Assembly (NCBI GenBank): GCA_963737265.1
Contig: CAVTRY010000014.1
Span: 128,001-192,000 of the forward strand
Direction: 5' to 3'
DNA from: an uncultured delta proteobacterium
GTDB lineage: Bacteria; Myxococcota_A; Polyangia; Fen-1088
Length of the DNA: 64,000 bases
The notes under the pieces are model-generated. The model saw nothing but the letters and a program-made list of their open reading frames with translations. It ran no database searches and was not told the origin of the DNA. Shown here piece after piece: positions 901 to 30,082 of the stretch (positions are counted from its first letter, which is position 1; the number at the start of each line of letters is the position of its first letter). The translations under genes and the position numbers were made by a program.

Positions 901-2638
901 GGCTCCTGTCCTTCTCGAAAGATTCCTCGAAAGATTCCTCGAAAGGCACGCGCAGCACGATCCGGGTTCCGGCCTCCGCGGAGGAGAATACCTCGGCCGA
1001 GCCTCTGACGATGGCGAGACGCTCGCGCATGCCGAGCAAGCCCAGGCCGCGCCCGGACGGGCCGGGTTGGGCCACGCTGTCCGGATCGAAGCCATGCCCA
1101 TCATCTTCGATCTCGATCTGCAGGTGCCCTTCTCTCTCTTCGACCTGGATCAGCACTTGCTCCGCGCCAGAGTGTCGGGCCACGTTGCGAATGGCTTCTT
1201 GCACGGCTCGGAAAAGGGTGGTTTCGCGCACCGAGGTCAGTTTGTGCATGGGCTCGCTGACTTCGCAGCGGAACGCAATCCCCGCGGCGGCGAGGTGGTG
1301 GGCGGCCAGCCAACGGATGGCCGGGAAAAGCCCCAGGTCGTCCAACACCGCCGGGCGAAGCTCGTAGATGAGCGCGTGCACGTCGGCAAGGGTCCGGCCA
1401 GCGAAGGCGCGGGCCTCGGTCAGACGCTCGCGTCCGGCATCCGCCGTGGGGGCGGACAGCGCCGCATCCAGTTTCATGCCGAGCGCCGCGAGGGTCTGGC
1501 AAGTCTCGTCGTGCAGCTCGCGCGCGATGCGCCGGCGCTCGTCCTCCTGAGCCGAAACGAATTTGGTCAGAAGCTGCCGCAGCTCCTGCGTCCGCGCCAG
1601 CACGCGCTGTTCGAGCACGTCATGGCTGCTCGTCAGCTCGTCCATGGATTTCTTGAGGGCCACCCGCATCGCCTCCAGCGAACGACCCAGCTGCCCCACT
1701 TCGTCGTCGGCTTGCGCCGGCACCGACGCATTCAAGTTTCCGTCGGCGATGCGCTTGGCCGCGATGTTGAGATCCTTGAGCGGTTCGGTCACGCTGTGGG
1801 TAGCACCCCAGGAGAAAAGCAAGGCCAAGATCAGAAGCAGGGGCGACAGCAGGAGCATCCGACGCCCCTGAAGATTGAGGGGACCCAGCGCTTCGGCGCG
1901 CGGCTGGCGCAGAACGATCCGCCAAGGCGCCAGCGTCAGCTTGGCCTCGGCCTTGATATCGGCGCTGTCATCGTCCGGCGGCACAGTTGGCAGATTGGGG
2001 TCGGTGCTGACCATGACCTGGCCCCGCTCGTCGAGCAAGGTCGCGCTTCCGCTGCCAAGACGACCCTGCCGGAGAACGGCCAGCCAGGTGGGCGCGGCCG
2101 GATTCGCGACCGCGCACACCAGGTTCGTCACCTGTCCATTCCAGTCGCGCACCGGCACGAGCAAGACGAAACGACTGCGCCGCGGGTCGGCCAGATGCAC
2201 CACGCCCTGGCGGCCAGAGGCTAGCGCCGCGTCGACTTCGGGCAAGGCCAGCAACGCTTGGTCGGCCGAGGTCTGGTGTCGAAATTCCTGCCACAGAATC
2301 TTCTTGTCCGAGGCAACGACCACGATGGCGTCAAGGATGGGCGAGCGCAGAAAGGTCGAGCGCAAAGCACGCTTGGCATTCCCGGTCGCCCAATCCTCGG
2401 GCGTTCCGATAGCCGCCGAGAAACCGGCAAGGTTCTCGCGAAGCTCGTAGTCGAAATGCAGCGCCAGGCTCTTGGCCAGAAGCTCGTGCTCGCCGAGGAG
2501 ATGGCGCGAAACATCGTCGATGGTCGACGTTAGGGCCCACGCCGCCAGCGCCATGGGGGCGAGGGCGCCGAAACCCACCAGCAACGCAACCCGCTTGCGG
2601 ATGCCATAGGGGCGTTTTCTTGCAGGTGACGCCATCAT
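893..2638 (-). CDS. HisKA_3-type sensor histidine kinase with periplasmic Cache-like and HAMP domains
   Basis: Two TM helices, HAMP (DDEVGQLGRSLEAM), ERRRIARELHD H-box, EDDGHGF and GLGLLGMRER ATPase motifs; ATGA coupling to the upstream gene. Confidence 0.93.
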   Translation of the reverse strand: MMASPARKRPYGIRKRVALLVGFGALAPMALAAWALTSTIDDVSRHLLGEHELLAKSLALHFDYELRENLAGFSAAIGTPEDWATGNAKRALRSTFLRSPILDAIVVVASDKKILWQEFRHQTSADQALLALPEVDAALASGRQGVVHLADPRRSRFVLLVPVRDWNGQVTNLVCAVANPAAPTWLAVLRQGRLGSGSATLLDERGQVMVSTDPNLPTVPPDDDSADIKAEAKLTLAPWRIVLRQPRAEALGPLNLQGRRMLLLSPLLLILALLFSWGATHSVTEPLKDLNIAAKRIADGNLNASVPAQADDEVGQLGRSLEAMRVALKKSMDELTSSHDVLEQRVLARTQELRQLLTKFVSAQEDERRRIARELHDETCQTLAALGMKLDAALSAPTADAGRERLTEARAFAGRTLADVHALIYELRPAVLDDLGLFPAIRWLAAHHLAAAGIAFRCEVSEPMHKLTSVRETTLFRAVQEAIRNVARHSGAEQVLIQVEEREGHLQIEIEDDGHGFDPDSVAQPGPSGRGLGLLGMRERLAIVRGSAEVFSSAEAGTRIVLRVPFEESFEESFEKDRSLD

Positions 2639-3204
2639 GGCGCGGCCTCGATCATCCTTCTTGCCACCCGGAGCAATTCCACCGTGCGTCCGTTGAAGCG
2701 CAAGACGGTGGCGCCCGATGCGCCAGCCCATTCCATGTCCTGCCAGACCGAGCCATCCGGGAGCGCCTCCGCCTTTAAGGATGCGGAATATCCCTTTTCG
2801 AGCGGAACGGCGATCTCGTGGAAGCTGGGCAGCGGCACGCGCAATGCCGCGGGAATTTCCTTGCCGCGGGCACGGAACAGGGTAAGTCGAATGCGACGGT
2901 CTTGGCGCCACTGCATGGCTACCGAGGCGGCGGGTTCGGGTTTTGCGGTTACGCGAATTCCGCCGGCAAGCGGTTCATAGGCAGCGAAGAGATCGGGGAA
3001 GAGATCAGGGAAGAGGCGTAGGCCCGTTCGCGCTTCCGCCTCGGCGAGGTTTGCACAGAGCCGCACCCCCGACGGTATGCCAGCGAGCCAAGCGGGGATG
3101 GCGTCGGCGGTGCGCAGCACGAGGGCCGTGCCGCCAAGGACAACCGCCAGCACCAGGCCCGCGCGCCCCATGTCCTTCACCGAGTGCCTTCCGTTGTGGC
3201 TCAC
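2635..3204 (-). CDS. Hypothetical exported/membrane-anchored protein
   Basis: N-terminal hydrophobic helix; GTGA/ATGA overlaps with both neighbours. Confidence 0.65.
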   Translation of the reverse strand: MSHNGRHSVKDMGRAGLVLAVVLGGTALVLRTADAIPAWLAGIPSGVRLCANLAEAEARTGLRLFPDLFPDLFAAYEPLAGGIRVTAKPEPAASVAMQWRQDRRIRLTLFRARGKEIPAALRVPLPSFHEIAVPLEKGYSASLKAEALPDGSVWQDMEWAGASGATVLRFNGRTVELLRVARRMIEAAP

Positions 3205-4154
3205 GCGACCGTGAAAAAGAGTATGACACCGAGTCCGACCGCCAGCGCAACAAAACCCCAGCGCGCGGACGCCCCTGGAGATTTCGCGCGTTCGTCGAAC
3301 AGCACGCGGCAGCGGCGTTCGATGGCGTGCAGATGGAGATCCTGCCATGCGCTGGCGCCGAGTTGGTTTGGATTCGAACCGGAGAGGCCTATGACCTTTT
3401 GCAGACCACGCGCTAGAGGACGCGGGCTGCCCATGGAGTGGGCCGCGGTAGCGTCGGCCCGTCGCTCGATTTCTTGCACTGCCGCTCGCGCGACGAGCTG
3501 GATTGCTGGATTGAAGAAAAAGAGCCCGCGCGCAAGCATCAGCCCCCACCCGAGCGCGGGATCACGCCGTGCCACGTGGCTCATCTCGTGTGCCACGGCT
3601 GCTTCCAGCTCGTCAGGCGCCAGCCACTCGACCAGACCCGTGGAGGCGACGATGGTCGGTCGGCGAAGGCCGCGACACATGAGAATCGGCTGCCGGGTGG
3701 CCTCGACCAGAAGTCTAGGGGCGGAAACGCCGAGAACAGCCGCTGCCCGTTCCACGGCGACGACCAATGCCTTGGGGGCCGCGACCACTTCATTCCGTTT
3801 GGCCCTACCTCGCATGACATCCCATGCGAAGGGAATCAGGTCGCGCAAGAACAGTGCGGTTCCGATCAAGGCCAGCGCGACCACCAAGGCGGCTCCTGGA
3901 TGTATGCCCTGCCATTGAATCTTGGCGAAGTGGCTTCCCGAGAAGATCGCGCGTTCATCGCGAAAGGTCTCGCCCCGACGAAAAGGCGCCAGCAGCGAGA
4001 AGAACGGGGTCAGGACAACCGGACAGGCCAGGGCAAACAACCAGAAGCGGAGGCGAATTGGTGCTGCGTGGACAGGGCGCAGCCGGAGAAACGCCAGGGT
4101 CGCCACTGCCGCGACGATGCCGTGAAGGATGGTCTCGGCCGCCAGAGCGCGCAT
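3201..4154 (-). CDS. M56/M48-family membrane zinc metallopeptidase (BlaR1/HtpX-like)
   Basis: TM helices, ELEAAVAHEMSHVARRD (HExxH), FFFNP and EIERRAD motifs. Confidence 0.85.
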   Translation of the reverse strand: MRALAAETILHGIVAAVATLAFLRLRPVHAAPIRLRFWLFALACPVVLTPFFSLLAPFRRGETFRDERAIFSGSHFAKIQWQGIHPGAALVVALALIGTALFLRDLIPFAWDVMRGRAKRNEVVAAPKALVVAVERAAAVLGVSAPRLLVEATRQPILMCRGLRRPTIVASTGLVEWLAPDELEAAVAHEMSHVARRDPALGWGLMLARGLFFFNPAIQLVARAAVQEIERRADATAAHSMGSPRPLARGLQKVIGLSGSNPNQLGASAWQDLHLHAIERRCRVLFDERAKSPGASARWGFVALAVGLGVILFFTVA

Positions 4155-4155
4155 C

Positions 4156-4890
4156 CTATTTCCGAGCGGGATCGTCTTCGCGGTCGCGGAGCAAATCCGC
4201 TGCTTCCTCGGGAAACATCCTGGCGTACTCCAGCGGGTGCTCGTGGCGCATGCGCGCGCGCGAGATTTTGCCGGTGAAGATGGACTTGTCGAAGGGAAAG
4301 ACCTCGGGTGCGAAGTGCGCGTTGTAGAGGTGCCAGATGACGACGACGAGAAAGCCCATGAGGCCTTCATTGCTGTGGGCCACTTTGGCGGCGGGAATGA
4401 TCTGGCCGGGTAGAAAATGCGTGGCCGCGATAGGGAAGAGGAGCACGAATCCCGTGGTGATCATCACCAAGCTGCCGAGCACGAGTCCCCAGTATTCGAA
4501 TTTCTGCTTGTAGTCGAAGCGGTCGAAGCGCGCGCGCACCTCCGAGACGCGCAGGTAATAGCGCAGCGTGATCGCGGCGTCGCGAAAGTCCTTGCCCGAT
4601 AACATCATGGACGACGAGGAGCGGCCGGTGATGACTCCGGACAGCACGGTGACGAGGTGGGCGAGCGTCAACCCGGAGACGAGCACGCCCGCGATCCGGT
4701 GGAAAAGCCGAACCTGAGCGATGCCACCAAGCGCGCTCACGATTGCCCTGGCAAACGCGACATCGTGAAACTTCTGCGGAAACCCGGTGATGACCAAAAC
4801 CGAGAAGAGTACCGTCACGAGCAGGTGATCCATGCGGTCGCGACGACCGAAGCGAACGACGTAATCCGTGTCGACTTTTTTCTGGGTCAT
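4156..4890 (-). CDS. Diheme cytochrome b, FdnI/HydC-like membrane subunit
   Basis: RMDHLL, ITGFPQKF, LFHRIAG, RFDYKQKFEYWG, AHSNEG, WHLYNAH; four TM helices. Confidence 0.88.
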   Translation of the reverse strand: MTQKKVDTDYVVRFGRRDRMDHLLVTVLFSVLVITGFPQKFHDVAFARAIVSALGGIAQVRLFHRIAGVLVSGLTLAHLVTVLSGVITGRSSSSMMLSGKDFRDAAITLRYYLRVSEVRARFDRFDYKQKFEYWGLVLGSLVMITTGFVLLFPIAATHFLPGQIIPAAKVAHSNEGLMGFLVVVIWHLYNAHFAPEVFPFDKSIFTGKISRARMRHEHPLEYARMFPEEAADLLRDREDDPARK

Positions 4891-5966
4891 CGATTCACCA
4901 CTGCACGCCAGAGGTGGAGCAGAATCTGAAGTATGAGTCCTCCCACGGTGAATGGGACGATGAATGCGTAGAAGAGCTTTACCAAGAAGACGAGTGGCGT
5001 GCGGTGCAGCGACGGCTGGTAGTGACTCATCCAGGCCGCCGGAAAATTCTGGGAGGCGCCGGGGTGGCATTTCTGGCAGGTCTTCACCAGGTTCGCGCGA
5101 AAGGCGGGAGCATCCGCACCGGTGACCTTGCCAATGTCGTGGATGCCGTGGCAGTCCACGCACAGGGCGACCACGCGTTCGCTCCCGCTGGTCTCGCCCT
5201 TCGCGCCGAAGCTGGCGGTGGTGCCGTGAAAGTCGGCCAGGTAGGTCGATAGCACGTTGGTCGATAGGCCGTACTTGCCCATCAGCTTCTCGTCGGCGTG
5301 GCACTTGCCGCACAACGCGGGCGTGCTCATGAGCCAAGCCTTGTTTTTCGGGTCGGCGATGTCGTGCGAACGGTGGCAGTCGGTGCACACCGGGACGTCC
5401 TGATTCTGCTGCGTCAGCAATGCCTTGCCGTGGACGCTCCTGGCATAGGCTTGGGAAATCAGCTCGTGACAGCCGGCGCAGGTTCGCGAGATGCGCGAGC
5501 GAGGCTCGGCGGGGCGGGCTATGTCGTGCGAGCCGTGGCATTTCACGCACGTTGGTGCGAAGACATCGCCGCGCGCCTGAAGACCGTAGTGAACGCTGTC
5601 CAGCGTCTTGGTGTAATTCTCGAAATGGCAGGTCTTGCAGGCCTCTCCGAAACTCGAGCGAAAGTGCGCCAGGTCCTCGTAATGGCGTTTAGGGTGCGGT
5701 ACCTCGTCCAGACCGACGTGACAATCGGTGCAGCGCAGGGCCTTGTGAACCGATCCGGCGAGCAAATCCTTGTTCATGAACAAGGGCGCTTCCTCGCCAT
5801 TTTCCAGCGTTACCGTGAGTTTTTCGTCGCCGTGGCAGCTTAGGCAGCCATCGGACTCGTCGGCCATCGCGGCCATGTTCACGGGTGGGACCATGGACGC
5901 CATGACCATGGCGAGCATCCCGACGGTGAAAACATGTTGTGCCGGCCGCAATCTCATCGACAACAT
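4887..5966 (-). CDS. Multiheme cytochrome c (9 CxxCH) with C-terminal membrane anchor
   Basis: Nine CxxCH motifs counted; signal peptide; C-terminal TM helix; ATGA overlap with the cytochrome b gene. Confidence 0.92.
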   Translation of the reverse strand: MLSMRLRPAQHVFTVGMLAMVMASMVPPVNMAAMADESDGCLSCHGDEKLTVTLENGEEAPLFMNKDLLAGSVHKALRCTDCHVGLDEVPHPKRHYEDLAHFRSSFGEACKTCHFENYTKTLDSVHYGLQARGDVFAPTCVKCHGSHDIARPAEPRSRISRTCAGCHELISQAYARSVHGKALLTQQNQDVPVCTDCHRSHDIADPKNKAWLMSTPALCGKCHADEKLMGKYGLSTNVLSTYLADFHGTTASFGAKGETSGSERVVALCVDCHGIHDIGKVTGADAPAFRANLVKTCQKCHPGASQNFPAAWMSHYQPSLHRTPLVFLVKLFYAFIVPFTVGGLILQILLHLWRAVVNR

Positions 5967-19536: not shown

Positions 19537-20103
19537 ATGCTCAATCCTGGGGTTCGCGCGAACGTGCCGTACACCTATCAGGAGTACTGCTATCTGCCGA
19601 ACGACGGCCGTCGCTACGAGATCATCGAGGGGGATCTTTACGTGACACCTTCGCCTTCTTCCATGCACCAGACTGTTTCACGTCGCCTGCAGTTCGCGCT
19701 CATGAGCCAGCTCGAGGTACCGGGGCTAGCCTACATCTTCGACGCCCCGTATGACGTTATCCTGGCCGAGACATCGGTGGTCGAGCCCGACCTTGTCATC
19801 ATTCGCAAGAGCCGCCGCGGCAGCATCTCGAAGCGTGGTTTCGAAGGGGCGCCCGACGTGGCCGTCGAGATCCTTTCGTCCTCCACCTGCGGCAACGACG
19901 TGTTCTTGAAAAAGGCCGCGTACGCCAGGGCTGGCATTCAGGAGTATTGGATCGTGGAGCCCGACCTCGGCCACGTCGAGGTATTTCGCCTGAAAGAGAG
20001 CGGTTACGATCAAGGCGTGCTCTTCGACCGTTCCGCCACCCTGACCTCACCGTCGTTTCCCGAAGTGGCCATCCCCCTCGCACCGATCTTCGAGCCGCTT
20101 TAG
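19537..20103 (+). CDS. Uma2-family endonuclease domain protein
   Basis: RYEIIEG, VVEPDL, PDVAVEILS, YARAGIQEYWIV; TATAAT 6 nt upstream of the ATG. Confidence 0.92.
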   Translation: MLNPGVRANVPYTYQEYCYLPNDGRRYEIIEGDLYVTPSPSSMHQTVSRRLQFALMSQLEVPGLAYIFDAPYDVILAETSVVEPDLVIIRKSRRGSISKRGFEGAPDVAVEILSSSTCGNDVFLKKAAYARAGIQEYWIVEPDLGHVEVFRLKESGYDQGVLFDRSATLTSPSFPEVAIPLAPIFEPL

Positions 20104-20287
20104 GGGCGCCTGCAGTTTCTAATCGCGCGGCGAAAACCGCGAGAACGGCGCTCGCTTTCGGCCCGTGCTCGCTGCCCACCTCCCCGCGCGGGCCTGGCAA
20201 TGCTGCGCTAGGAGGCAAAGGCTGGCAAGCGCAAGTAGCTGACTTCATGGTGGTTTAACCTGGTTTTCTGGCACTCTCCCGGCGCCC

Positions 20288-20315
20288 TTGACAGCGGCGG
20301 GTTGGTGCTTAACCT
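20288..20315 (+). promoter_or_regulatory. Putative sigma70 promoter for the fmdB-like/groES/groEL unit
   Basis: TTGACA (20288-20293), 16-bp spacer, TAACCT (20310-20315). Confidence 0.45.
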
Positions 20316-20367
20316 TTGTCTACCTGCTTCGCAGAGCAGCAGAACAAAACTAGACACCGAGCGACAG

Positions 20368-20739
20368 ATGCCAATTTACGAATACGAATGCCAGGCCTGC
20401 AACCATCGCTTCGAGGAATGGCAGAAGATGTCCGACAAGCCGGTCAAGGTTTGTCCGAAGTGCAAGGCGCGCAAGGTTGACAAGCTGATCAGCCACACGT
20501 CGTTCCAGCTCAAAGGTGGCGGTTGGTACAGCGATCTCTATTCCAGCCAGAAGCCGGGAAGCTCGGACAAGTCGGGCGACAAGCCCGAGTCGTCCGCCAG
20601 CAGCTCCGGGACGGGCGCCGACAAGAAGTCGGGCGCCGAGTCCAAGGCCGGCGAAACATCAGGTTCCACGTCCACGACCACGGACAGCAAAGACAAGAGC
20701 AAGGGCAAAAAGGGCGCGACCAAGGCAGCGGCTGCCTAG
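20368..20739 (+). CDS. FmdB-family zinc-ribbon protein
   Basis: MPIYEYECQAC..CPKC..FQLKGGGWY followed by a low-complexity S/K tail. Confidence 0.9.
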   Translation: MPIYEYECQACNHRFEEWQKMSDKPVKVCPKCKARKVDKLISHTSFQLKGGGWYSDLYSSQKPGSSDKSGDKPESSASSSGTGADKKSGAESKAGETSGSTSTTTDSKDKSKGKKGATKAAAA

Positions 20740-20830
20740 CACCGTCTGCCAGAGCAGAGCGACCTGAGCGCCGCGCATGACCGTTCGGACGTGTCCGAAC
20801 GGGTTCATTCAATCAAGGAGAAAACGGAAA

Positions 20831-21118
20831 ATGAAAGTCAGACCACTCTACGATCGCATCCTCGTCAAACGCGTTGAGGAAGAAACCAAGACCGCCGGCG
20901 GGCTCTTCATCCCCGACACCGCCAAGGAAAAGCCCCAGAAGGGCTTGGTCGTTGCCGCGGGCAACGGCAAGCTTCTGGAAAACGGATCGATTCGCAAGCT
21001 GGACGTCAAGGAGGGCGACAAGGTTCTCTTCTCCAAGTACTCCGGCAACGACATCAAGATGGACGGCGTCGAGCACTTGATCCTCCGCGAGGACGATGTC
21101 CTCGCCATTCTCGAGTAG
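20831..21118 (+). CDS. groES: Co-chaperonin GroES
   Basis: [30 protein letters not shown]; AAGGAG RBS. Confidence 0.98.
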
Positions 21119-21136
21119 ATACGAAAGGAAATCATC

Positions 21137-22792
<1,656 letters not shown>

Positions 22793-22797
22793 GTAGA

Positions 22798-22923
22798 CCC
22801 GCGCTCTGGCTTCGGCGGGCAAGGCCCGCCTCCGCCAAATGTCCGTGATGGGAACCCTGAAAGGGTTCCCAAACCCTCCCGCGCTCTGGCTTCGGCGGGC
22901 AAAGCCCGCCTCCGCCAAACGTC
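22798..22923. repeat. Left part of an 80-bp palindromic tandem-repeat array (about 1.5 units)
   Basis: GCGCTCTGGC at 22801 and 22881; hairpins GGGAACCCT-GAA-AGGGTTCCC and GGCGGGC-AAA-GCCCGCC. Confidence 0.92.
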
Positions 22924-23062
22924 GGGTTTGCCCGGACATTCGCGTCATCGACTGAATTACCGGGCAGCTAAAGGAATTGGCGGGCAACCGCGCCGCAACT
23001 AGCGAATGGGGCGGCGTCGCGTTACCATGGCGACGACTCTCAACCCCACCGTGGAGGCTCGC

Positions 23063-23254
23063 ATGAATTCCGACACGCAAATGATCGTCCTTGGCGTCGA
23101 AGCGGTCCTTGGCATCGTCATCCTGTTCGCTCAGGTCAAGCTGTTCTCCATCGCGTCCACATTGACCGATTCCAAGACGAAGCTGACCGCGATTAGCTCC
23201 ACCTTGGACGCGATCCTTCAGGAAATGCACAAGAACCGGGACAAGCAAGCGTAG
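23063..23254 (+). CDS. Small single-TM hypothetical protein (transposon cargo)
   Basis: GGAGG RBS before ATG 23063; hydrophobic helix then short coiled coil. Confidence 0.6.
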   Translation: MNSDTQMIVLGVEAVLGIVILFAQVKLFSIASTLTDSKTKLTAISSTLDAILQEMHKNRDKQA

Positions 23255-23263
23255 GATGAATCC

Positions 23264-23431
23264 ATGCGAAAGACTCCCTGGCATTCGACCAAGAAGGGCA
23301 CGAGGCACTACCACAACAACGGAAAGTGCGGTCCTGGGGGCGAGATACCAGACCGCAATCGAGCGACGGGACCTGGCACAGGGTTGACCCTTTGCGAAGA
23401 CTGCAAGAAGCTCAACAGAGATGGCAAGTAG
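23264..23431 (+). CDS. 55-aa His/Cys-motif small protein, putative metal-binding (cargo; not in ORF track)
   Basis: Hand translation MRKTPWHSTKKGTRHYHNNGKCGPGGEIPDRNRATGPGTGLTLCEDCKKLNRDGK; follows the previous gene by 9 nt. Confidence 0.65.
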   Translation: MRKTPWHSTKKGTRHYHNNGKCGPGGEIPDRNRATGPGTGLTLCEDCKKLNRDGK

Positions 23432-23435
23432 GAAG

Positions 23436-23828
23436 CTAGGCACGAAGCTTTCCTCCTCTCCACTTCGCTCGCTGGTCATGCTTCGGATCTTCGCGTAGAG
23501 CATCGGTCCTGACGAATTCGATTTCCCACTGCGGCCCGACAAGCTCTAGATCGAGGACATCCCAAACCCTGCAAAGACGGGCTACTTTCAGTCCATTCTG
23601 CTGTGCCACCGCGACCGCGCGCAGTCCTTCATAGTGTTCCCCGCTGAACCATACGGTGGGATCCCTTCGTGGGTGAGTATCGCCACCCTCGCAGGATTCG
23701 ATGGTTTCAATCCCGCCTTCTTGCAGAAGACGCACGGCCCTAGCAATGCCCTGATCGATAGGACGCGCGCCGCGACCTTCGGGAGGGGTTTTCCGCTCCC
23801 GCGTTATTGCCGAGCGCGATCCTCTCAT
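23436..23828 (-). CDS. Hypothetical protein with ID.GI..AV..L..GIET.ESCEGG..H motif (cargo)
   Basis: ATGA-coupled to the upstream HTH gene; globular composition. Confidence 0.65.
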   Translation of the reverse strand: MRGSRSAITRERKTPPEGRGARPIDQGIARAVRLLQEGGIETIESCEGGDTHPRRDPTVWFSGEHYEGLRAVAVAQQNGLKVARLCRVWDVLDLELVGPQWEIEFVRTDALREDPKHDQRAKWRGGKLRA

Positions 23829-24109
23829 GGCCTGACACCTACTTCTGGCCCACGTCCACAATGTGGGCATGTTCCGGCCAGAGGGTACCTCCCAGACACC
23901 ACGTCATCGAATAGCACGCACGCCAGCCTGGATACCTGGAAGGCCAGATTGACCGACGCTGGGTTGACGCCCTTGTCGATGTTTTTCATGGTGCTCAACT
24001 CGAAGCCAAGCGCCTTGGCGAGCATCTTCCACGTGCCCACTCGAATGCGCAGGAAGCGCAGAGCGGCCATGACGTTCGCCCGCTGCTCCTTGCTCAGTCC
24101 GCGTCTCAC
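23825..24109 (-). CDS. XRE-like HTH regulator with C-terminal CPHCG zinc knuckle
   Basis: WKMLAKALGFELSTMKNI HTH-like segment; GTGA coupling to the transposase stop. Confidence 0.75.
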   Translation of the reverse strand: MRRGLSKEQRANVMAALRFLRIRVGTWKMLAKALGFELSTMKNIDKGVNPASVNLAFQVSRLACVLFDDVVSGRYPLAGTCPHCGRGPEVGVRP

Positions 24110-25341
24110 GCTGTCACCTTCCTAAGAAAGCTTGGCTCTATGCCGAGCTTGTGCATGGCCATGACCAAGCACGACAGATTGTGACAGAGCACCTTGCACA
24201 AGATCTCGTTAACCTGTGCGGTGAAAGTCTTGGAGCGCACGGACTGGCCAAACTTGCGCTTGACCGCTGAAAAGGTGCTTTCGATGGCGCTGCGCTTGGA
24301 GTAGGCCGCGAGAAAATCCTCGTGCTTAAACATGAAGACCGCGCGCATCTTGCGCCACGCTGGCGATCCATCGTCCTGGCTGTTGATCTTGAAAGGTATG
24401 AATGGCGAAGCGCCGGCGGCTTCGATGGCGGCTAGATTCTCGTGCCCGAGATACGCCTTGTCCGCCGAGACTTCTGCCATGCCTACGAAGCGTTGCTTCG
24501 TAGCTTCCACCAAGCCGGGGAGTTGGGGAGAGTCCGCGCCGCTGCTGTCCGTAACCCGGACGGCGGTGATGATGTTTGTCGATGTTCCGATCATCGCGTG
24601 CGCCTTCAGCCAGGTATGCTCCTTCATCTCGCGTCCGTACTTCTGATCATACCAGCGACGGCAAATGGCAGTGCCAAAACCAGTCGAGTCCACCGCAAAG
24701 GCAGTCTCGACGGCGGCCAGGGGCTCCGCGCTTTGTTCTATCAGCTTCGTCAGAAGCTCGGTCACCTCGACCTTGTCGAAGTAGTCGATGATCGTGTTGT
24801 AGCGTGGCACCTTGGTCATGTGGCCAGCTTCGCCAGACGCTTCCAGGTCTGTCGTCGCGCGACGGGCGGACATCGCCACGTAGACCTTCATTACCATCGC
24901 AAAGACGGCGTCAGAGAGAGGCACTGGCTTGCGACCACGGCCCGCATGCGCCGGAGTCTTGATGCCGTCGCAGAGCCCACGCAGAAGGTGCTCAACCGTC
25001 TCCTTCTCCTCGCACTGGGCGGTGTTGTAGGCGTTCCAGTCGCGATCTTGCGGCGCCCGGCTGTAGCTGATGGACTGGGTAACAACGTCTCCCTTTTCAG
25101 ACTTCGCAACCGTCTGTGCGAATTCCACGGCCCACTGGTGCTTGCAGCGTATGCGGCGAAGCTCGAAATCGGGGCATGAGCAGGTGCCTTCCGCCACGTT
25201 GACGAGGTAGCCGCCCGATGGCTGGGTTTGCGATGGCACAAGCCAAGTCACGCCCGCCACGCACTTGATCCGGTTGTCATGCGAAAGCATCCTGCCGCGC
25301 TCTTGCCGAAGATCCGTTGTGCTCGCCTGCGTTGTCGTCAT
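24106..25341 (-). CDS. Transposase with N-terminal SWIM zinc finger and DDE_Tnp_1-like (IS4/IS5 superfamily) catalytic domain
   Basis: CSCPDF..CKH (SWIM); AVDSTGF, SADKAY, YSKRSAIESTFSAVKRKFG catalytic/YREK-like motifs. Confidence 0.9.
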   Translation of the reverse strand: MTTTQASTTDLRQERGRMLSHDNRIKCVAGVTWLVPSQTQPSGGYLVNVAEGTCSCPDFELRRIRCKHQWAVEFAQTVAKSEKGDVVTQSISYSRAPQDRDWNAYNTAQCEEKETVEHLLRGLCDGIKTPAHAGRGRKPVPLSDAVFAMVMKVYVAMSARRATTDLEASGEAGHMTKVPRYNTIIDYFDKVEVTELLTKLIEQSAEPLAAVETAFAVDSTGFGTAICRRWYDQKYGREMKEHTWLKAHAMIGTSTNIITAVRVTDSSGADSPQLPGLVEATKQRFVGMAEVSADKAYLGHENLAAIEAAGASPFIPFKINSQDDGSPAWRKMRAVFMFKHEDFLAAYSKRSAIESTFSAVKRKFGQSVRSKTFTAQVNEILCKVLCHNLSCLVMAMHKLGIEPSFLRKVTA

Positions 25342-25421
25342 GATTATATGTATACATTAGCGCGCGTGAAGATGCAAGGTAAATGTGTTGACAATAACAT
25401 GACGCCTGGTATCCTCAAATC
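25342..25421. promoter_or_regulatory. Divergent promoters of the transposase and RHH genes, with a palindromic operator
   Basis: + strand TTGACA(25388)-16 bp-TATCCT(25410) with TGn extension; - strand TTGCAT-17 bp-TATACA; palindrome ATGTATACAT at 25348-25357. Confidence 0.6.
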
Positions 25422-25604
25422 ATGAGCCCAGCACCACGCAAAAAGGCGTCAGAGCGACGCGAGACGCCACTCCAGATCCGTCTGACCGCAGAGGAAAAGA
25501 AGATGTTCACTGAGGCGGCCGACCGCGACCACCTATCAATATCGGCGTGGCTACGCCTGGCGGGCCTTCACGCCATCGAGAACCGACACAAGCTGAAGGG
25601 ATGA
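25422..25604 (+). CDS. Ribbon-helix-helix (DUF1778/MobC-like) DNA-binding protein
   Basis: LQIRLTAEEKKMFTEAADRDHLSISAWLR. Confidence 0.8.
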   Translation: MSPAPRKKASERRETPLQIRLTAEEKKMFTEAADRDHLSISAWLRLAGLHAIENRHKLKG

Positions 25605-25606
25605 TC

Positions 25607-26332
25607 CTACTCGTCATCGCCCTGACTGGGTGTCAGGCTGATTCCAAAATCACGAACGTCCTTACGCATCTCGACGATGACCTCGCTAATGTCTTCAATG
25701 TTTGAGTAGCGAGGCTTAGGCGATCCAACGATCTTGCCGCGTTTGTTCACATCCAATCTGGGTTTGCCCAGAATCTTCACTAGTTCGTCGAGCACCTGAC
25801 TCCGGAAGGCAGCGTTGTTCTTCAGTTCCTCAGTGTTAGCCCCAACGATGCCGCGTAGAGAACTCAACGAAGCCGAGAAATCCTCACGAGCCCCGCTCAC
25901 CCGAGCGGATTGAGTTTGATCGTACTGCTCCATGGCTTTCAAAAGCGAGGCAGAAACAGCCGCGAGTTGATCCGCAACCGGCGTTTCAAAGCCTGACAGC
26001 TTCTTCTCAAGACCCGCCAACCTGTTTTCATACTGCAACCCACGCCGCGCGTTTGCTTGAGTTTGTAGCGCGAAGTGAAGAACCAACATTGCCCACAGCG
26101 CGAAAGCAAGATTCAACAGAATAGCTCCGAGTCTTGCCTCGACGGATAGAAGCTGAGGCAATCCAAGAAAGAAGATGCACCCCAGGACGGTCACAACCAG
26201 CACACCGGCAATGATCTCTGCCGTCCTCGGGTTAAGACGTGGCATGACCCGCTCCGCCAAGCGCAAAAGACCAGCGATTGCTACAAACTCGATGAGCGCC
26301 CCTATGGCGGCTCCCAGAATGATGTCTCGCAT
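25607..26332 (-). CDS. Hypothetical 3-TM protein with C-terminal coiled coil (cargo)
   Basis: Three hydrophobic helices; visibly lower GC than the flanking genes; TAGCAT 8 nt upstream of the ATG. Confidence 0.65.
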   Translation of the reverse strand: MRDIILGAAIGALIEFVAIAGLLRLAERVMPRLNPRTAEIIAGVLVVTVLGCIFFLGLPQLLSVEARLGAILLNLAFALWAMLVLHFALQTQANARRGLQYENRLAGLEKKLSGFETPVADQLAAVSASLLKAMEQYDQTQSARVSGAREDFSASLSSLRGIVGANTEELKNNAAFRSQVLDELVKILGKPRLDVNKRGKIVGSPKPRYSNIEDISEVIVEMRKDVRDFGISLTPSQGDDE

Positions 26333-26473
26333 GGCGCGCGATGCTACCACCGCCGCCCCCGCGCCGTAAGCACGCCGCAGCGCCCGCGTGGCCCATCATG
26401 TCACCGGCCCCTTTCGGGAATTGCCGGGCAGCCGGGGGAATTCTCGGGCAGGTGAGAATTGGCGGGCAAGCCC

Positions 26474-26717
26474 CCAAACGTCCGTGATGGGAACCCTGAA
26501 AGGGTTCCCAAACCCTCCCGCGCTCTGGCTTCGGCGGGCAAAGCCCGCCTCCGCCAAACGTCCGTGATGGGAACCCTGAAAGGGTTCCCAAACCCTCCCG
26601 CGCTCTGGCTTCGGCGGGCAAAGCCCGCCTCCGCCAAACGTCCGTGATGGGAACCCTGAAAGGGTTCCCAAACCCTCCCGCGCTCTGGCTTCGGCGGGCA
26701 AAGCCCGCCTCCGCCAA
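26474..26717. repeat. Right part of the 80-bp palindromic tandem-repeat array (3 units)
   Basis: TCCGTGATGG at 26481, 26561 and 26641; identical units with no spacers. Confidence 0.95.
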
Positions 26718-26812
26718 CGCGGTCGCCCGAAAAGGTACTGTCTAGAGCGCCCGGCAGTTTTCCCGTCGGGCGTTTTTCTAGCGCCCTCCGCGGTGGCGGT
26801 TACAATGGAAGC

Positions 26813-27208
26813 GTGATCGCCGAAGTCGTGGACAATCGCAGAAGAGATCCTCGCATCGAGGTCTTCGCCCAGGCCGAGGTAAAGGCCAAGGATGTCCAGA
26901 TCATGGAGGTCCGCAATGTGTCCACGGGCGGGATCTATCTCGTCGGCACGTCCGCCCAATATCCCGACCTGGCTCCTGGCAAGGATCTCGGCCTCGTGAT
27001 CTTCGGCCTGGAAGATGGCTTGGGCGACGACCCGACCTTCAATATTGTCTGCCGTGCGCGCATCATTCGCATCGACGAGGGCTTTCCGGGCAAGCGTCCG
27101 CCCGGTTTCGGCGCCACCATCGATCCCATCGACGAAGACAACCGCGACCGCCTGACCAACCTGCTTTTGCGGGCCGACCATTTCCGGGCGGGCGATCCGC
27201 GCCGGTAG
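26813..27208 (+). CDS. PilZ-domain protein
   Basis: NRRRDPR (RxxxR) and NVSTGG (D/NxSxxG) motifs. Confidence 0.8.
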   Translation: MIAEVVDNRRRDPRIEVFAQAEVKAKDVQIMEVRNVSTGGIYLVGTSAQYPDLAPGKDLGLVIFGLEDGLGDDPTFNIVCRARIIRIDEGFPGKRPPGFGATIDPIDEDNRDRLTNLLLRADHFRAGDPRR

Positions 27209-27262
27209 TCGCGACAAGCACGAAAGTAGCGGAAGCCGCGGCCGAGTGGTAACAGGAAGAGA

Positions 27263-27634
27263 GTGTTGCGGCTTCTTAGGCTGATGTTCTTCCTGGGCTG
27301 TCTTGTGGCCCTGGCCTGGTTTGGCATGACCGTGCCACTCGGGGATCGAACCCTGTTCGAGCACGTGCAGGCGATCTTGAAAACGAATGCGTCGCAAGAT
27401 CTCTTGCGCGGCACCAAGGAAAAAATGAGCGACCTCGTGGATCGCGCGACCGACAAAGTCGTCAAGGGCGTTGCCAGGAATACGCCCAGCCAGGTCAACT
27501 CGCGCGGCGAGGGCGCGGGGCAAGAGCCAGGCGTCACTCCGCCTCCGCCACCTCCGATGGAAGACTTGCCCGCCAAGGATCGCAAGGCGCTGCGCGGGAT
27601 CATCGGGCAAGGTCGCCCCGTGAACAACCCGTGA
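27263..27634 (+). CDS. Hypothetical membrane-anchored protein
   Basis: N-terminal TM, VPLGDRTLFEHV motif, Pro-rich linker. Confidence 0.7.
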   Translation: MLRLLRLMFFLGCLVALAWFGMTVPLGDRTLFEHVQAILKTNASQDLLRGTKEKMSDLVDRATDKVVKGVARNTPSQVNSRGEGAGQEPGVTPPPPPPMEDLPAKDRKALRGIIGQGRPVNNP

Positions 27635-27645
27635 TGGGAAGAAAA

Positions 27646-27978
27646 ATGGAAGAGAACGATTACCGCCAGCGCGTGGATGAAATCTTCCGCCGCATCGACG
27701 CAGCCTTCGAAAACGTGGATCCCGATCTGGCTGAATCGGACTATGCCCAGGGCACGCTGGTCATTACCTTTCGCCAGGCGCACAAGTTGATCTTGTCGCC
27801 GCAGACGCCGCTGCGACAAATCTGGATGGCGTTTCGCGACCGCGCCTGGCATTTCGCCTTTGCAGAGACGAGCGGGCGACCAGAAACGTGGACCGACGAC
27901 CGCGGCCAGGGCGTGGAGTTGCTGGGGCTCATCGCAGAGCTAGCGCGCGAAAACGCCTCGTCACAGATAGCGTTCTGA
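27646..27978 (+). CDS. cyaY: Iron donor protein CyaY (frataxin)
   Basis: GTLVITF..LILSPQTPLRQIWMA..WHF..W.DDRG. Confidence 0.8.
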   Translation: MEENDYRQRVDEIFRRIDAAFENVDPDLAESDYAQGTLVITFRQAHKLILSPQTPLRQIWMAFRDRAWHFAFAETSGRPETWTDDRGQGVELLGLIAELARENASSQIAF

Positions 27979-27982
27979 CGTT

Positions 27983-29818
27983 CTAGATCGGATAGTCAGG
28001 CGGTCCCACGGAGCCGCCCATGGTGTGGCCTTCGCGCCACAGGGCTTCTTCCATGGCTGCAAGCAACGGCCCAATGGTTTGTCGGTCGAGCGCGCTCACC
28101 GCCAAAACGCGGCCGCTGTCTTCGAGGATGGCTCTCTCCTCGGTCTGTAGGCGGTCGGCCTTGTTGTAGACCAGCAGGCGCGGCGTCTCGGCCAGATTCA
28201 AATCGCCGAGGATGCGCTCTACCGCGGTGATGTGGGCATCGCGATCCGGATCCGATGCATCGACCAGGTGGAGCAAGAGATCGGCGTTGTCCAGCTCCTC
28301 CAGCGTGGCGCGGAACGCTTGCGCGAGATCCTTGGGCAGATCGCGTATAAATCCCACGGTGTCGGCGAGAATCAACTCTCGCTCGCGCGGGAAGCGCAGC
28401 CGGCGGGTGGTCGGATCGAGGGTGGCGAAGAGCTTGTCTTCCACCAAGACGTCGCTGCCGGTGAGACTGTTCAGCAGGGTGGACTTGCCAGCGTTGGTGT
28501 AGCCCACGATGGCGACGACAGGCAGTCCGTGGCCTTCCCGCGCAGAGCGCCGGTTCGCGCGCTGGCGGCGGGTTTGCTCGATGTCTTTTTCCAAGCGATG
28601 CAACCGCTCGCGCGCACGGCGGCGGCCGATTTCTAGCTTGGTCTCGCCCGGGCCGCGCCCGCCAATGCCTCCCACCAGGCGACTCATCATGGTGTTTTCT
28701 TCCTGCAGTCGCGGCAGGCGATAGCGCAATTGCGCCAGCTCGACTTGCAGCTTGGCGTCCCGGCTGCGCGCGCGCTGGGCGAAGATGTCGAGAATCAGAA
28801 TGGTTCGATCGATCACCTTGAGATCGGTAAACGACGCGATGGCATGGGCCTGGCCCGGCGACAGATCAGGATCGAAAATCAGCACGCTGGCATCGAACTG
28901 CATGGCGCGCACAAGCACGTCCTCGAGCTTGCCGCGACCGATGAGGTAGCGCGGATCGGGTTCGGGCCGTCGCTGCACCGCCACGTCCACCACCAGAATG
29001 CCGGCGGTTCGGCACAGCTCGCGCAGCTCGTGTACGCGGCTATTGTCTTGGGAACCCTGGGCGGGTTCCCAAACCTTCCCGCGAGGCTCCGCTGCCGGCA
29101 AAGCCGGCAGGCTCCGCACGCGACTATTGTCTTGGGAACCCTGGGCGGGTTCCCAAACCTTCCCGCGAGGCTCCGCTGCCGGCAAAGCCGGCAGGCTCCG
29201 CACGCGACTATCGCCGCGCGATTTGCCGATCTCCGCCACGACCAGCAGGGCGCGCTCGGCCGAGCGGGTCGCGCGCGTGGAGGGCAGCACGCGCTCGAAT
29301 TCTTCTTCCAGCGCGGCGATGATCTCGGCGGGATCGACGGGCGCGCGGTGGAACGGCGCGGGTGGCAGTGAGACCCAGGGCGATTTGCCTTCGCGGGGTG
29401 GGACCAGGTGGGCAAGGTGAAGATCGGCGGGCCGGCCTTCGTGATTGACGCCCACGGCGGCGACGAGATCCAGGCGCAAGAGAGCGAGATCGACGAGATC
29501 GTCGCGCGACAGGGTTTCGTTGCGCAAGTGGGTGTGCACCAGGCGTAGCCCGCGAAAGCGGCCGTGACCAGCGCGGAGGCGTCCGACCTCGGGCAGAACG
29601 ATGCGCGAGGCGTCGCCCACGAAGACATGCTCGATATCGCCCCGGCGTGAGATGAGCACGCCGACTTGGCGCCCGATGCTTCGCGATACCTCGCACAAGT
29701 AGGCGCCAAGCTCGGCCGAGACGACATCGTTGGGCGCGACCCGTCGGCGGTACACGCGTTCGAGGGCCGACAGCTCCGAGGGCTTGAGGCCCGCGCGATT
29801 TCCCGTCACCTCGTGCAT
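27983..29818 (-). CDS. hflX: Ribosome-splitting GTPase HflX (long N-terminal form) with an in-frame repeat insertion
   Basis: [43 protein letters not shown]. Confidence 0.96.
29034..29211. repeat. Two identical 84-bp palindromic units inserted in-frame in hflX
   Basis: TATTGTCTTGGGAACCC at 29041 and 29125; encodes [28 protein letters not shown] twice; related to the 80-bp unit. Confidence 0.92.
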
Positions 29819-29867
29819 GCGGGCTCAAAAGTGTTGATAGGGAAACCCTGGGAGGGTTTCCCCAATT

Positions 29868-29999
29868 CCGCGACAAGCGCAGCGACGTCGCGGAAGGCGG
29901 CAGAAAGAGGGGCCTTTCCAGGAGGGACGCGCCACCCAGTTGGAGCGATGAATGGTGGTCGTAAACGTCGTTGTCGTCGTGGCCCTGGCCGTGGCCGAC
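29868..29999. repeat. Dispersed ~130-bp intergenic repeat, copy 1
   Basis: Near-identical to 35392-35524; preceded by a GGGAAACCCT-GGG-AGGGTTTCCC hairpin (~29840-29862). Confidence 0.88.
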
Positions 30000-30082
30000 G
30001 AAGATCACTCCGGCCACGGCCACGACCTTCTGCACCTTTCGCGGAATTACGGGCCGGGCTTAGCCCGCCTTCGCCTACCGGA

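Follow-up and report, generated by a model that had tools for sequence, protein, structure and literature searches.

A probable cargo-carrying transposon with an IS903-like, SWIM-finger transposase in an uncultured Polyangia bacterium, and its relatives

Downstream of groEL, inside an 80-bp tandem repeat array, the 64-kb stretch of DNA analysed here (part of contig CAVTRY010000014.1 of an uncultured delta proteobacterium of the class Polyangia, hereafter the window) holds a segment of 3550 bp at 22924–26473 that encodes a 411-aa transposase and six other open reading frames (ORFs). The locus raises the question of whether this segment is a complete mobile element and, if so, to which kind of system it belongs. 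The answer favoured here, with a probability of roughly 0.8, is that it is an intact, autonomous-type cargo transposon, or 'transporter insertion sequence' (transporter IS), of a large clade whose IS5-family, IS903-like transposase carries a SWIM finger.

Boundaries, end architecture and transposase

The element is framed by two copies of the 9-mer CCAAACGTC, the left one at 22915–22923, where it forms the opening 9 bp of an 80-bp repeat unit, and the right one at 26474–26482. Directly inside these copies lie 18-bp terminal inverted repeats, GGGTTTGCCCGGACATTC at 22924–22941 (+) on the transposase-downstream side and GAATTGGCGGGCAAGCCC at 26456–26473 (+) on the transposase-upstream side, the latter reading GGGCTTGCCCGCCAATTC when reverse-complemented and matching the former at 14 of 18 positions. 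A script run over a 10-kb stretch returned this as the sole pair combining an exact 9-mer duplication with an inverted repeat of at least 12/18 around the transposase. An earlier note on this DNA, made from the letters and a list of ORFs, had proposed the same exact boundaries and a complete transposon, and both are borne out. One caveat is that each unit of the 80-bp tandem repeat on either side also begins with CCAAACGTC. Excising the element with one 9-mer returns the array to register, so that a true target duplication is the simplest reading, and the caveat is settled by the duplications found across the family at other sites.

The ends carry a further, internal signature. Allowing up to one mismatch, the 64 kb contain six copies of a 13-bp motif, GAATTNNCGGGCA, all at the element ends and three at each, against an expectation of 1.57 copies and with none of 100 shuffles giving six. 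At the transposase-upstream end, the two subterminal copies (26418–26430 and 26438–26450, +) run in the direction of the tip copy, while at the downstream end the two subterminal copies (22954–22966 and 22974–22986, +) run opposite to the neighbouring, inverted tip copy (22929–22941) held within the terminal repeat. This layout was scored in 26 elements (10 genome-derived and 16 from metagenomes), oriented by the transposase and using the 13-mer inside the inverted repeat. Typically, three copies at offsets 5, 23 and 43 of the upstream end all point one way, and the downstream end has two copies in the upstream-end direction plus an inverted tip copy. The asymmetry holds in the window and in most of the 26 elements over 30–68% guanine-plus-cytosine (GC), including members of 30–35% GC; in L083 and L110 the arrangement is mirrored. 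The two ends thus differ in structure, and their layout is kept far past the reach of sequence similarity. The order of a GGCTTTG tip followed by the 13-bp motif is likewise kept across the family: the window tips read GGGTTTG and GGGCTTG, the family consensus begins GGCTTTGCCC, and the full consensus tip, GGCTTTGCCCAATGATTC, forms a perfect inverted repeat in several relatives.

In the transposase (24106–25341, −), Pfam places a SWIM domain (PF04434) at residues 45–74 (2.3e-8, 33.8 bits against a cut-off of 19.6) and a DDE_Tnp_1 core (PF01609) at residues 212–389 (1.3e-21, 77.8 bits against a cut-off of 23). The putative zinc ligands C54, C56, C66 and H68, in the CxCxnCxH pattern of SWIM domains, are invariant across 28 aligned family members, as are D218, D294 and E354 together with Y347, R350 and K361, which supply the DDE triad and the Y-2-R-3-E-6-K (YREK) signature by which IS5-family transposases are recognised. 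Against the transposase of ISGNB1-1, the enzyme is 28% identical, residues 101–388 aligning with residues 15–298 of that 315-aa protein. Because the alignment starts at residue 101, the first ~100 residues with the SWIM finger represent an addition to a complete IS5-type enzyme. The same comparison agrees with the earlier note that an N-terminal SWIM domain is unusual, ordinary IS5-family enzymes having no such finger.

The predicted structure (AlphaFold; mean predicted local distance difference test score, pLDDT, 80.5) comprises a beta-plus-helix N-terminal domain at 10–77, a disordered linker at 80–97, a helical region at 102–208 and then an RNase-H-like core, with the SWIM domain at pLDDT 82–88. 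The best Foldseek matches are the transposases of ISCth4, an IS256-family element (E 1.8e-5, template-modelling score 0.33), and of Tn5; a sequence search of the Protein Data Bank with the transposase returned nothing at E ≤1. Apart from IS5_2, the best-scoring one, the NCBIfam models for IS4, IS5, IS1182 and ISNCY all score far under their cut-offs. IS903 itself is a ~1.05-kb, single-gene element with ~18-bp inverted repeats starting GGCTTTG and 9-bp duplications. Catalytic part, GGCTTTG tips, inverted repeats of ~18 bp and 9-bp duplication jointly place the window element in the IS5 family, near the IS903-like group; the placement beside IS903 relies on the values just given for IS903 and on the inverted repeats of ISGNB1-1, which begin GGCTCTG and GGCTTTG. 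By its motifs and alignments, then, the transposase is a distant, IS903-like member of the IS5 family of DDE enzymes to which a SWIM finger has been added at the N-terminus.

Relatives, cargo and accessory genes

Transposase relatives are numerous. Among 8000 scored proteins, at least 4090 match at E ≤0.001, the best being 60–76% identical and named simply 'transposase', while in 72,556 plasmids and 50,697 phage records no relative exceeds 30% identity, the matches there being ordinary IS5-family transposases. At E ≤1e-30, matches occur in 8 of 41 same-class genomes, the element's own included, and in 5 of 12 congeners; of 400 further genomes sampled from the phylum, seven matched at E ≤1e-40. 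In the relatives' genomes, tips and motifs of the window type flank the transposase homologues, and in all 36 elements could be bounded, ranging from 2483 to 9491 bp and from 28 to 68% GC in genomes, metagenomes and viral contigs. A 9-bp duplication, at 9/9 or 8/9, frames 34 of the 36, most of them at unrelated, non-repetitive sites. Ten of the bounded elements (3.5–9.5 kb, the window counted) derive from genomes; six of these have a 9/9 duplication (two after a 1-base boundary shift), two an 8/9 duplication and two none, and one of the ten, L055, encodes a transposase just 46% identical to that of the window.

The remaining elements were found with a boundary script that needs a GGCTTTG-like tip, an inverted repeat of at least 11/18 and a duplication of at least 8/9. 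For metagenome contigs, 80 of 558 relatives were kept and 73 loci tested, 16 of which could be bounded (inverted repeats 14–17/18; fifteen duplications at 9/9, one at 8/9), including 9 of the 19 loci that had 3 kb or more on each side. On viral contigs, 11 of 22 loci were bounded, 10 of them distinct, as insertions of 3.3–6.1 kb with inverted repeats of 14–18/18. An offset control, with the 9-mers shifted by 12 bp, bounded none of the 73 metagenome and none of the 22 viral loci. The homologues gathered thus share conserved ends, 9-bp duplications and variable cargo, the opposite of the outcome that the earlier note had named as fatal to its proposal. Its description of a poorly described family holds as regards the family, but not as regards a family without a place, given the ties to the IS5 family and its IS903-like group.

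All 36 bounded elements carry cargo and none is transposase-only, the cargo differing even among close relatives. Since it varies among elements with related transposases, the cargo is probably dispensable for transposition. Defence-type genes are present in 18 of the 36, and in 13 of these they are restriction-modification genes (PADLOC hits at E ≤1e-10, with helix-turn-helix-only models excluded). Specifically, type II restriction-modification pairs occur in L087, L116, L141, L146 and L149, type IIG or type I-like methylase and specificity genes in L118, L129, L136, L138 and L143, and further methylases in L140, L145 and L155. Additionally, L026 and L023 hold complete RosmerTA-type pairs (RmrA 1.7e-128 and RmrT 4.9e-11 in L026, RmrA 1.9e-61 in L023), L029 the candidate system PDC-M24A/B, L119 a HEC-04 ATPase and L083 an SspD-like protein. 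IS-type ends, a target duplication, a transposase and passenger genes, the features that define a transporter IS, are therefore all present, and the family is a shuttle for small modules, most recognisably restriction-modification, toxin-antitoxin or abortive-infection-type systems.

Some family members show structures of their own. L025 (7.4 kb) contains a nested IS3-family insertion at 3754–4976, with an HTH_Tnp_1 and rve ORF pair. In the smallest element, L126 (2483 bp), the transposase ORF at 1217–3151 reads 645 aa, possibly an N-terminal fusion or a mis-called start. The window's own genome holds two further copies. On one contig (C11), a second transposase, 59% identical and accompanied by helix-turn-helix and ribbon-helix-helix (RHH) partners, is followed by a type IIG restriction-modification gene (PADLOC 3e-64) and has a recognisable downstream tip, GGCTTTGATCGCCAATTC, just outside which a small AbrB-like ORF and a Fic/Doc-like ORF were noted by eye. 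On another (C13), both tips stand 2.26 kb apart around a truncated and frameshifted transposase; this copy is a decayed or rearranged element.

Two small DNA-binding proteins adjoin the transposase of the window. The gene for HTH94 (23825–24109, −) overlaps the transposase stop with its start, and a homologue directly follows the transposase at 13 of 19 loci, down to 35% transposase identity. In its alignment a CPHCG at the C-terminus never varies. The protein is modelled as a bundle of five helices (pLDDT 90), and its fold matches are all of the Cro/lambda-repressor/XRE type, weak in E value (~0.05) at probabilities of 0.97–1.0. A predicted complex of transposase and HTH94 scored 0.01, which counts neither for nor against a partnership. 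RHH60 (25422–25604, +), divergent from the transposase, is an RHH protein matching a NikA-like Pfam model at 1.1e-7 and the NCBIfam model RelB_antitoxin at 2.7e-6 (27.6 bits, below the cut-off of 50). By tblastn, RHH60 homologues occur at 6 of 19 loci, at five of them (L024, L026, L029, L033 and L056) a short distance upstream of the transposase and on the other strand; clustering by blastp adds one further homologue, at L032, and Pfam calls the L026 copy NikA-like. HTH94 and RHH60 are thus conserved accessory genes of the window's clade and not cargo. Of the earlier note's two DNA-binding proteins, the presence is upheld but the passenger status is not, with the HTH94 homologue recurring as it does.

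Two other assignments were considered and set aside. RHH60 as the antitoxin of a type II toxin-antitoxin pair fails on the sub-threshold RelB_antitoxin score and on its sole following neighbour, which is the convergent o247; in relatives, the RHH gene pairs divergently with the transposase. A universal core role for HTH94 and the RHH gene fails because the transposase stop lies 47–66 bp from the tip in 11 of the 26 metagenome and viral elements, where every other gene lies upstream of the transposase.

The 80-bp gap between RHH60 and the transposase (25342–25421) holds two promoter-like sites arranged back to back, both consensus matches: TTCACG-16-TATAAT from 25370 to 25343 (−) and TTGACA-16-TATCCT at 25388–25415 (+). 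A 10-bp palindrome, ATGTATACAT, adjoins the transposase start, and relatives have different repeats or palindromes at the same place between the RHH gene and the transposase. The divergent sites and the palindrome make repression by the RHH protein a plausible arrangement. The 'self-regulated' label given earlier is inferred from these sequence features.

The other ORFs of the window element are cargo. At the downstream end, o82 (23006–23254, +; 82 aa) has a single hydrophobic stretch and no assigned function or homologue at the family loci searched. It is followed by o55 (23264–23431, +; 55 aa, cysteine-containing), which is convergent with o144 (23436–23870, −); the likely start of o144 is the ATG at 23828, giving 130 aa and overlapping the HTH94 stop as ATGA. 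This convergent pair recurs in element L027, whose transposase is 59% identical to that of the window, with both homologues 58% identical and the pair inverted as a unit. Among 5.8 billion proteins, o144 has only two homologues. At the upstream end, o247 (25607–26350, −; likely start 26245, giving 212 aa) is a membrane and coiled-coil-like protein with three homologues only, at 100%, 63% and 50% identity. The window cargo ORFs match no family in Pfam, NCBIfam, PADLOC or PHROGs; the best Protein Atlas scores, 0.89 for o144 and 0.85 for o247, assign no family and serve as leads. An Rfam scan of window positions 20000–30000 gave nothing reaching the gathering score.

Insertion locus, mobility and rival readings

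The host target is an array of 80-bp units resembling repetitive extragenic palindromes (REPs), of which ~1.6 units lie left of the element (~22795–22923) and 3.0 units, 100% identical, lie to its right (26474–26717). The element has 58.2% GC, compared with 62.9% in the flanks (3 kb on each side) and 63.4% in the genome. The right-flank region is found in 12 of 12 other genomes of the genus. At all nine congener loci where one stretch covered both genes, ~100–330 bp separate groEL from the same right-flank gene and no element is present, some of these gaps containing REP-like repeats and some none. Because the species are only ~70–74% identical in DNA there, this is an empty locus by synteny and not an exact empty site. 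The recent insertion proposed earlier is plausible in view of the perfect duplication, the intact genes and this absence from the locus in 9/9 congeners; the empty-site check that went with it succeeds by synteny, but no contig of the soil runs described below supplies the joint.

Within the element's own genus, target choice appears to follow such repeats. By eye, about seven of nine insertions of the own-genus sub-clade lie in REP-like repeats (the window, L023, L024, L025, L030, L031 and L033), while a strict regular expression flags them at just 4 of the 10 bounded genome-derived elements. The repeats at these targets consist of two palindromes; L025, L030 and L033 have a common target, CCCGCGCTC or its complement, in the repeat linker, and CGGGCAAAGCCCG, which forms the second stem of the repeat at the window locus, is complementary to the element tip at 91%. 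The own-genus sub-clade thus inserts mostly into REP-like repeats, one stem of which mimics the tip. As a family-wide rule this targeting was rejected, none of the 16 metagenome elements with flanks examined lying in such repeats.

The repeats themselves are of wider occurrence. Genome-wide, units of 80–84 bp combine the palindrome GGGAACCCTnnnAGGGTTCCC, with 27 strict copies, and a second stem, often in tandem arrays of 2–4. The second stem varies between arrays yet stays self-complementary, for example gccggcaaagccggc and gcgagcgaagctcgc, which suggests a conserved structure. At ~29000–29220, two 84-bp units lie in frame inside an ORF for an HflX-like GTPase (27983–29818, −), duplicating a 28-aa segment while the reading frame stays open. 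Elsewhere in the family, L109, L121, L127 and L132 have tips reading GGCTTTGCC(C/T)AACAA or GGCTTTGCACAAA and duplications in C- or G-rich runs (ACCCCCCCT, TGGGGGGGT, CCCCCTCCC, GAGGGGGGA), which hints at a different target preference in this sub-group.

Parts of the window stretch are present in six soil or peat sequencing runs from three studies, and contigs, not reads, were compared from four runs of one study. The right arm of the element at 25596–26473, comprising o247 and the upstream end, recurs at 100% identity on contigs that in run X1 have a depth of 76–88, against ~4 for the rest of the element, a ~20-fold difference. In runs X1 and X2, these contigs diverge from the window exactly past 26473 and before 25596. 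The departure at 26473 places the o247 arm and its end in another context, which provides independent support for the right boundary; the second context points to module exchange, and a more abundant carrier of the o247 module exists in that soil community.

As an intact transposon, the element would work in the following manner. The transposase would bind the 13-bp motifs through the helical region 102–208, the SWIM domain or both, bring the two unlike ends together within a multi-subunit complex and cut at the GG tips. Insertion would proceed by a 9-bp staggered cut, mainly as cut-and-paste; IS903 likewise inserts with a 9-bp staggered cut. RHH60 probably represses the back-to-back promoters, while HTH94 may be a second regulator or an end-binding cofactor of the kind found in PIF/Harbinger elements. 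A more ambitious version remains tentative and is rather doubtful as a whole: a widespread IS903-related 'defence shuttle' clade (30–68% GC, in bacteria and viral contigs) with asymmetric three-site ends and cargo always present, in which o55/o144 and o247 are new anti-phage or addiction-type systems and the own-genus sub-clade homes to REP-like repeats by tip mimicry.

Several observations weigh against the identification as an intact transposon. No transposition event was observed, and in the contigs of the four runs none spans the element and none joins across the empty site, although stretches that no contig covers carry no information either way. The element is single-copy in its genome, with no second identical copy; among same-class genomes copy numbers are low and several copies are broken; of the two paralogues in the same genome, C11 has no upstream (right) end within 60 kb and the degenerate C13 copy has no target duplication. 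L024 and L027, two of the ten bounded genome-derived elements, have no duplication either, and the duplication frequency in the metagenome and viral sets is no independent estimate, since selection required both inverted repeat and duplication. The best NCBIfam model, NF033579 (IS5_2), gives 133.6 bits, under its cut-off of 140. Cargo ORFs are crude six-frame calls, the upstream cargo of L027 was left out of the scan, and the PADLOC methyltransferase matches may include orphan methylases. The roles proposed for SWIM, HTH94 and RHH60 are likewise deductions.

Part of this record would suit a fossil or domesticated insertion, one that inserted once, is now immobile and keeps its transposase and DNA-binding genes for regulating or stabilising linked modules: the single copy, the sparse and often broken relatives, the missing empty-site joint and the two degenerate paralogues are what it predicts. 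Such a history is nonetheless improbable, given that the catalytic and SWIM residues are all intact and invariant, that the duplication is perfect within a 100%-identical repeat array, that these soil runs also hold an identical right arm in another context, and that 34 of the 36 bounded elements have their 9-bp duplication at different sites. Much less probable again is a remnant of a mobilisable plasmid, an integrative and conjugative element or a prophage, with the NikA-like RHH protein as a relaxosome accessory and the ends as recombination scars. No relaxase, integrase, replication or structural gene was found in the 3.55 kb by ORFs, Pfam, NCBIfam and PHROGs, and inverted ends, a 9-bp duplication and a DDE transposase are present instead. 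RHH60 does match NikA-like and MobA/MbpA-type models weakly, but in the relatives checked the RHH gene stands divergently beside the transposase; relatives do lie on contigs predicted to be viral, but as bounded insertions themselves. The least credible possibility is that the boundaries arose by chance from the repeat array, the inverted match of 14/18 being coincidental. The repeat indeed holds sequence complementary to the left tip, and CCAAACGTC opens each unit, yet the array is restored in register without the element and one 9-mer, the six motif copies of the window are all at its ends, and 35 further elements, most of them outside repeats, show the same tips, arrangement of motifs and 9-bp duplications, so that family data already contradict this account. 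An intact cargo transposon thus remains the preferred identification.

Comparison with known systems

In the literature searched, no description of cargo transposons combining SWIM with an IS5/IS903-type transposase was found, IS and transposon catalogues and paper supplements lying outside that search, so that a prior naming is possible. If the identification is correct, a vehicle with a single transposase joins the few elements known to carry restriction-modification and other defence modules between genomes. Its easily recognised ends (GGCTTTG, the 13-bp motif at 5/23/43 and the 9-bp duplication) allow cargo to be delimited exactly, and with about half of the cargo lacking a known family, the elements offer a clean source of candidate defence genes.

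The nearest known relatives belong to the IS903 group, with which the clade has in common a DDE_Tnp_1 core with the Y-2-R-3-E-6-K signature, near full-length similarity to ISGNB1-1 at 28% identity, GGCTTTG or GGCTCTG tips and, in the family consensus, ~18-bp inverted repeats beginning GGC with a 9-bp duplication. Unlike that group, the window clade has a transposase extended at its N-terminus by ~100 residues that hold a SWIM finger, ends that each contain three asymmetrically arranged copies of the 13-bp motif, accessory genes for HTH and RHH proteins, and cargo in 36/36 elements of 2.5–9.5 kb, compared with the ~1.05 kb of single-gene IS903. Nor does it resemble the compact, ~1-kb, transposase-only type of IS, the window element having 3550 bp with seven ORFs and the smallest relative 2483 bp. 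The SWIM finger, the unlike multi-site ends, the accessory genes, the universal cargo, the size and the IS5_2 score under cut-off together argue that this is not a plain IS903-group member; judged from these features, it is a variant within the IS5 family and not a separate kind of system. Transporter IS have been described as occasional derivatives in the IS1595, IS481 and IS66 families, and the window clade resembles them in its IS-like ends, one transposase, target duplication and passenger genes unrelated to transposition. It differs in that every one of the 36 bounded elements has cargo, among which restriction-modification and further defence modules predominate.

IS1397 and ISKpn1, of the IS3 family, insert into REPs, as do the own-genus elements here, but with another transposase family; here the preference is confined to the own-genus sub-clade, and the repeat stem resembles the tip. 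Tn7-like transposons differ in structure between their left and right ends, which contain several repeats bound by the transposase. With these ends they offer a structural parallel to the window clade, together with defence-rich cargo, whereas their TnsABC(D/E) machinery, 5-bp duplication, attachment-site targeting and far larger size contrast with the single DDE transposase found here. The defence cargo of Tn7-like transposons is well described (Benler et al. 2021, PMC8649781). Restriction-modification genes in transposon-like units with imperfect terminal inverted repeats and 8-bp duplications were reported by Furuta, Abe and Kobayashi 2010 (PMC2853133), whose passages on these units recognise no active transposase and leave the mobilising enzyme open. 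As portrayed there, those units share with the present elements the placement of restriction-modification genes within inverted repeats and a short target duplication, and differ in that a defined transposase family, an end architecture and a 9-bp duplication are available here. If the present identification is correct, it would supply the transposase, ends and duplication for transposon-like restriction-modification units left unexplained in those passages.

A SWIM finger on a DDE transposase also links the clade to MULE/MuDR, FAR1-type and IS256 proteins, the best fold match, ISCth4, being of the IS256 family. In MULEs, the finger lies C-terminal to a catalytic domain of the Mutator/IS256 family, whereas here it is N-terminal and attached to an IS5-type core. 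PIF/Harbinger elements are eukaryotic and IS5-related, with a Myb/SANT-like partner protein, a 3-bp duplication, no SWIM finger and no cargo. They resemble the window element in encoding an IS5-like DDE transposase and a second small DNA-binding protein, and differ in that the partner there is Myb/SANT-like and the one here Cro-like, its partnership with the transposase being suggested by analogy. This two-protein design serves as the model for the cofactor role considered for HTH94. The mechanism would offer a new model: an IS5-type transposase that bears a SWIM finger, acts on multi-site ends of unlike structure and, in one clade, is coupled to a Cro-like partner. Such an element would stand between simple insertion sequences and complex transposons and form a bacterial parallel to the two-protein PIF/Harbinger elements.

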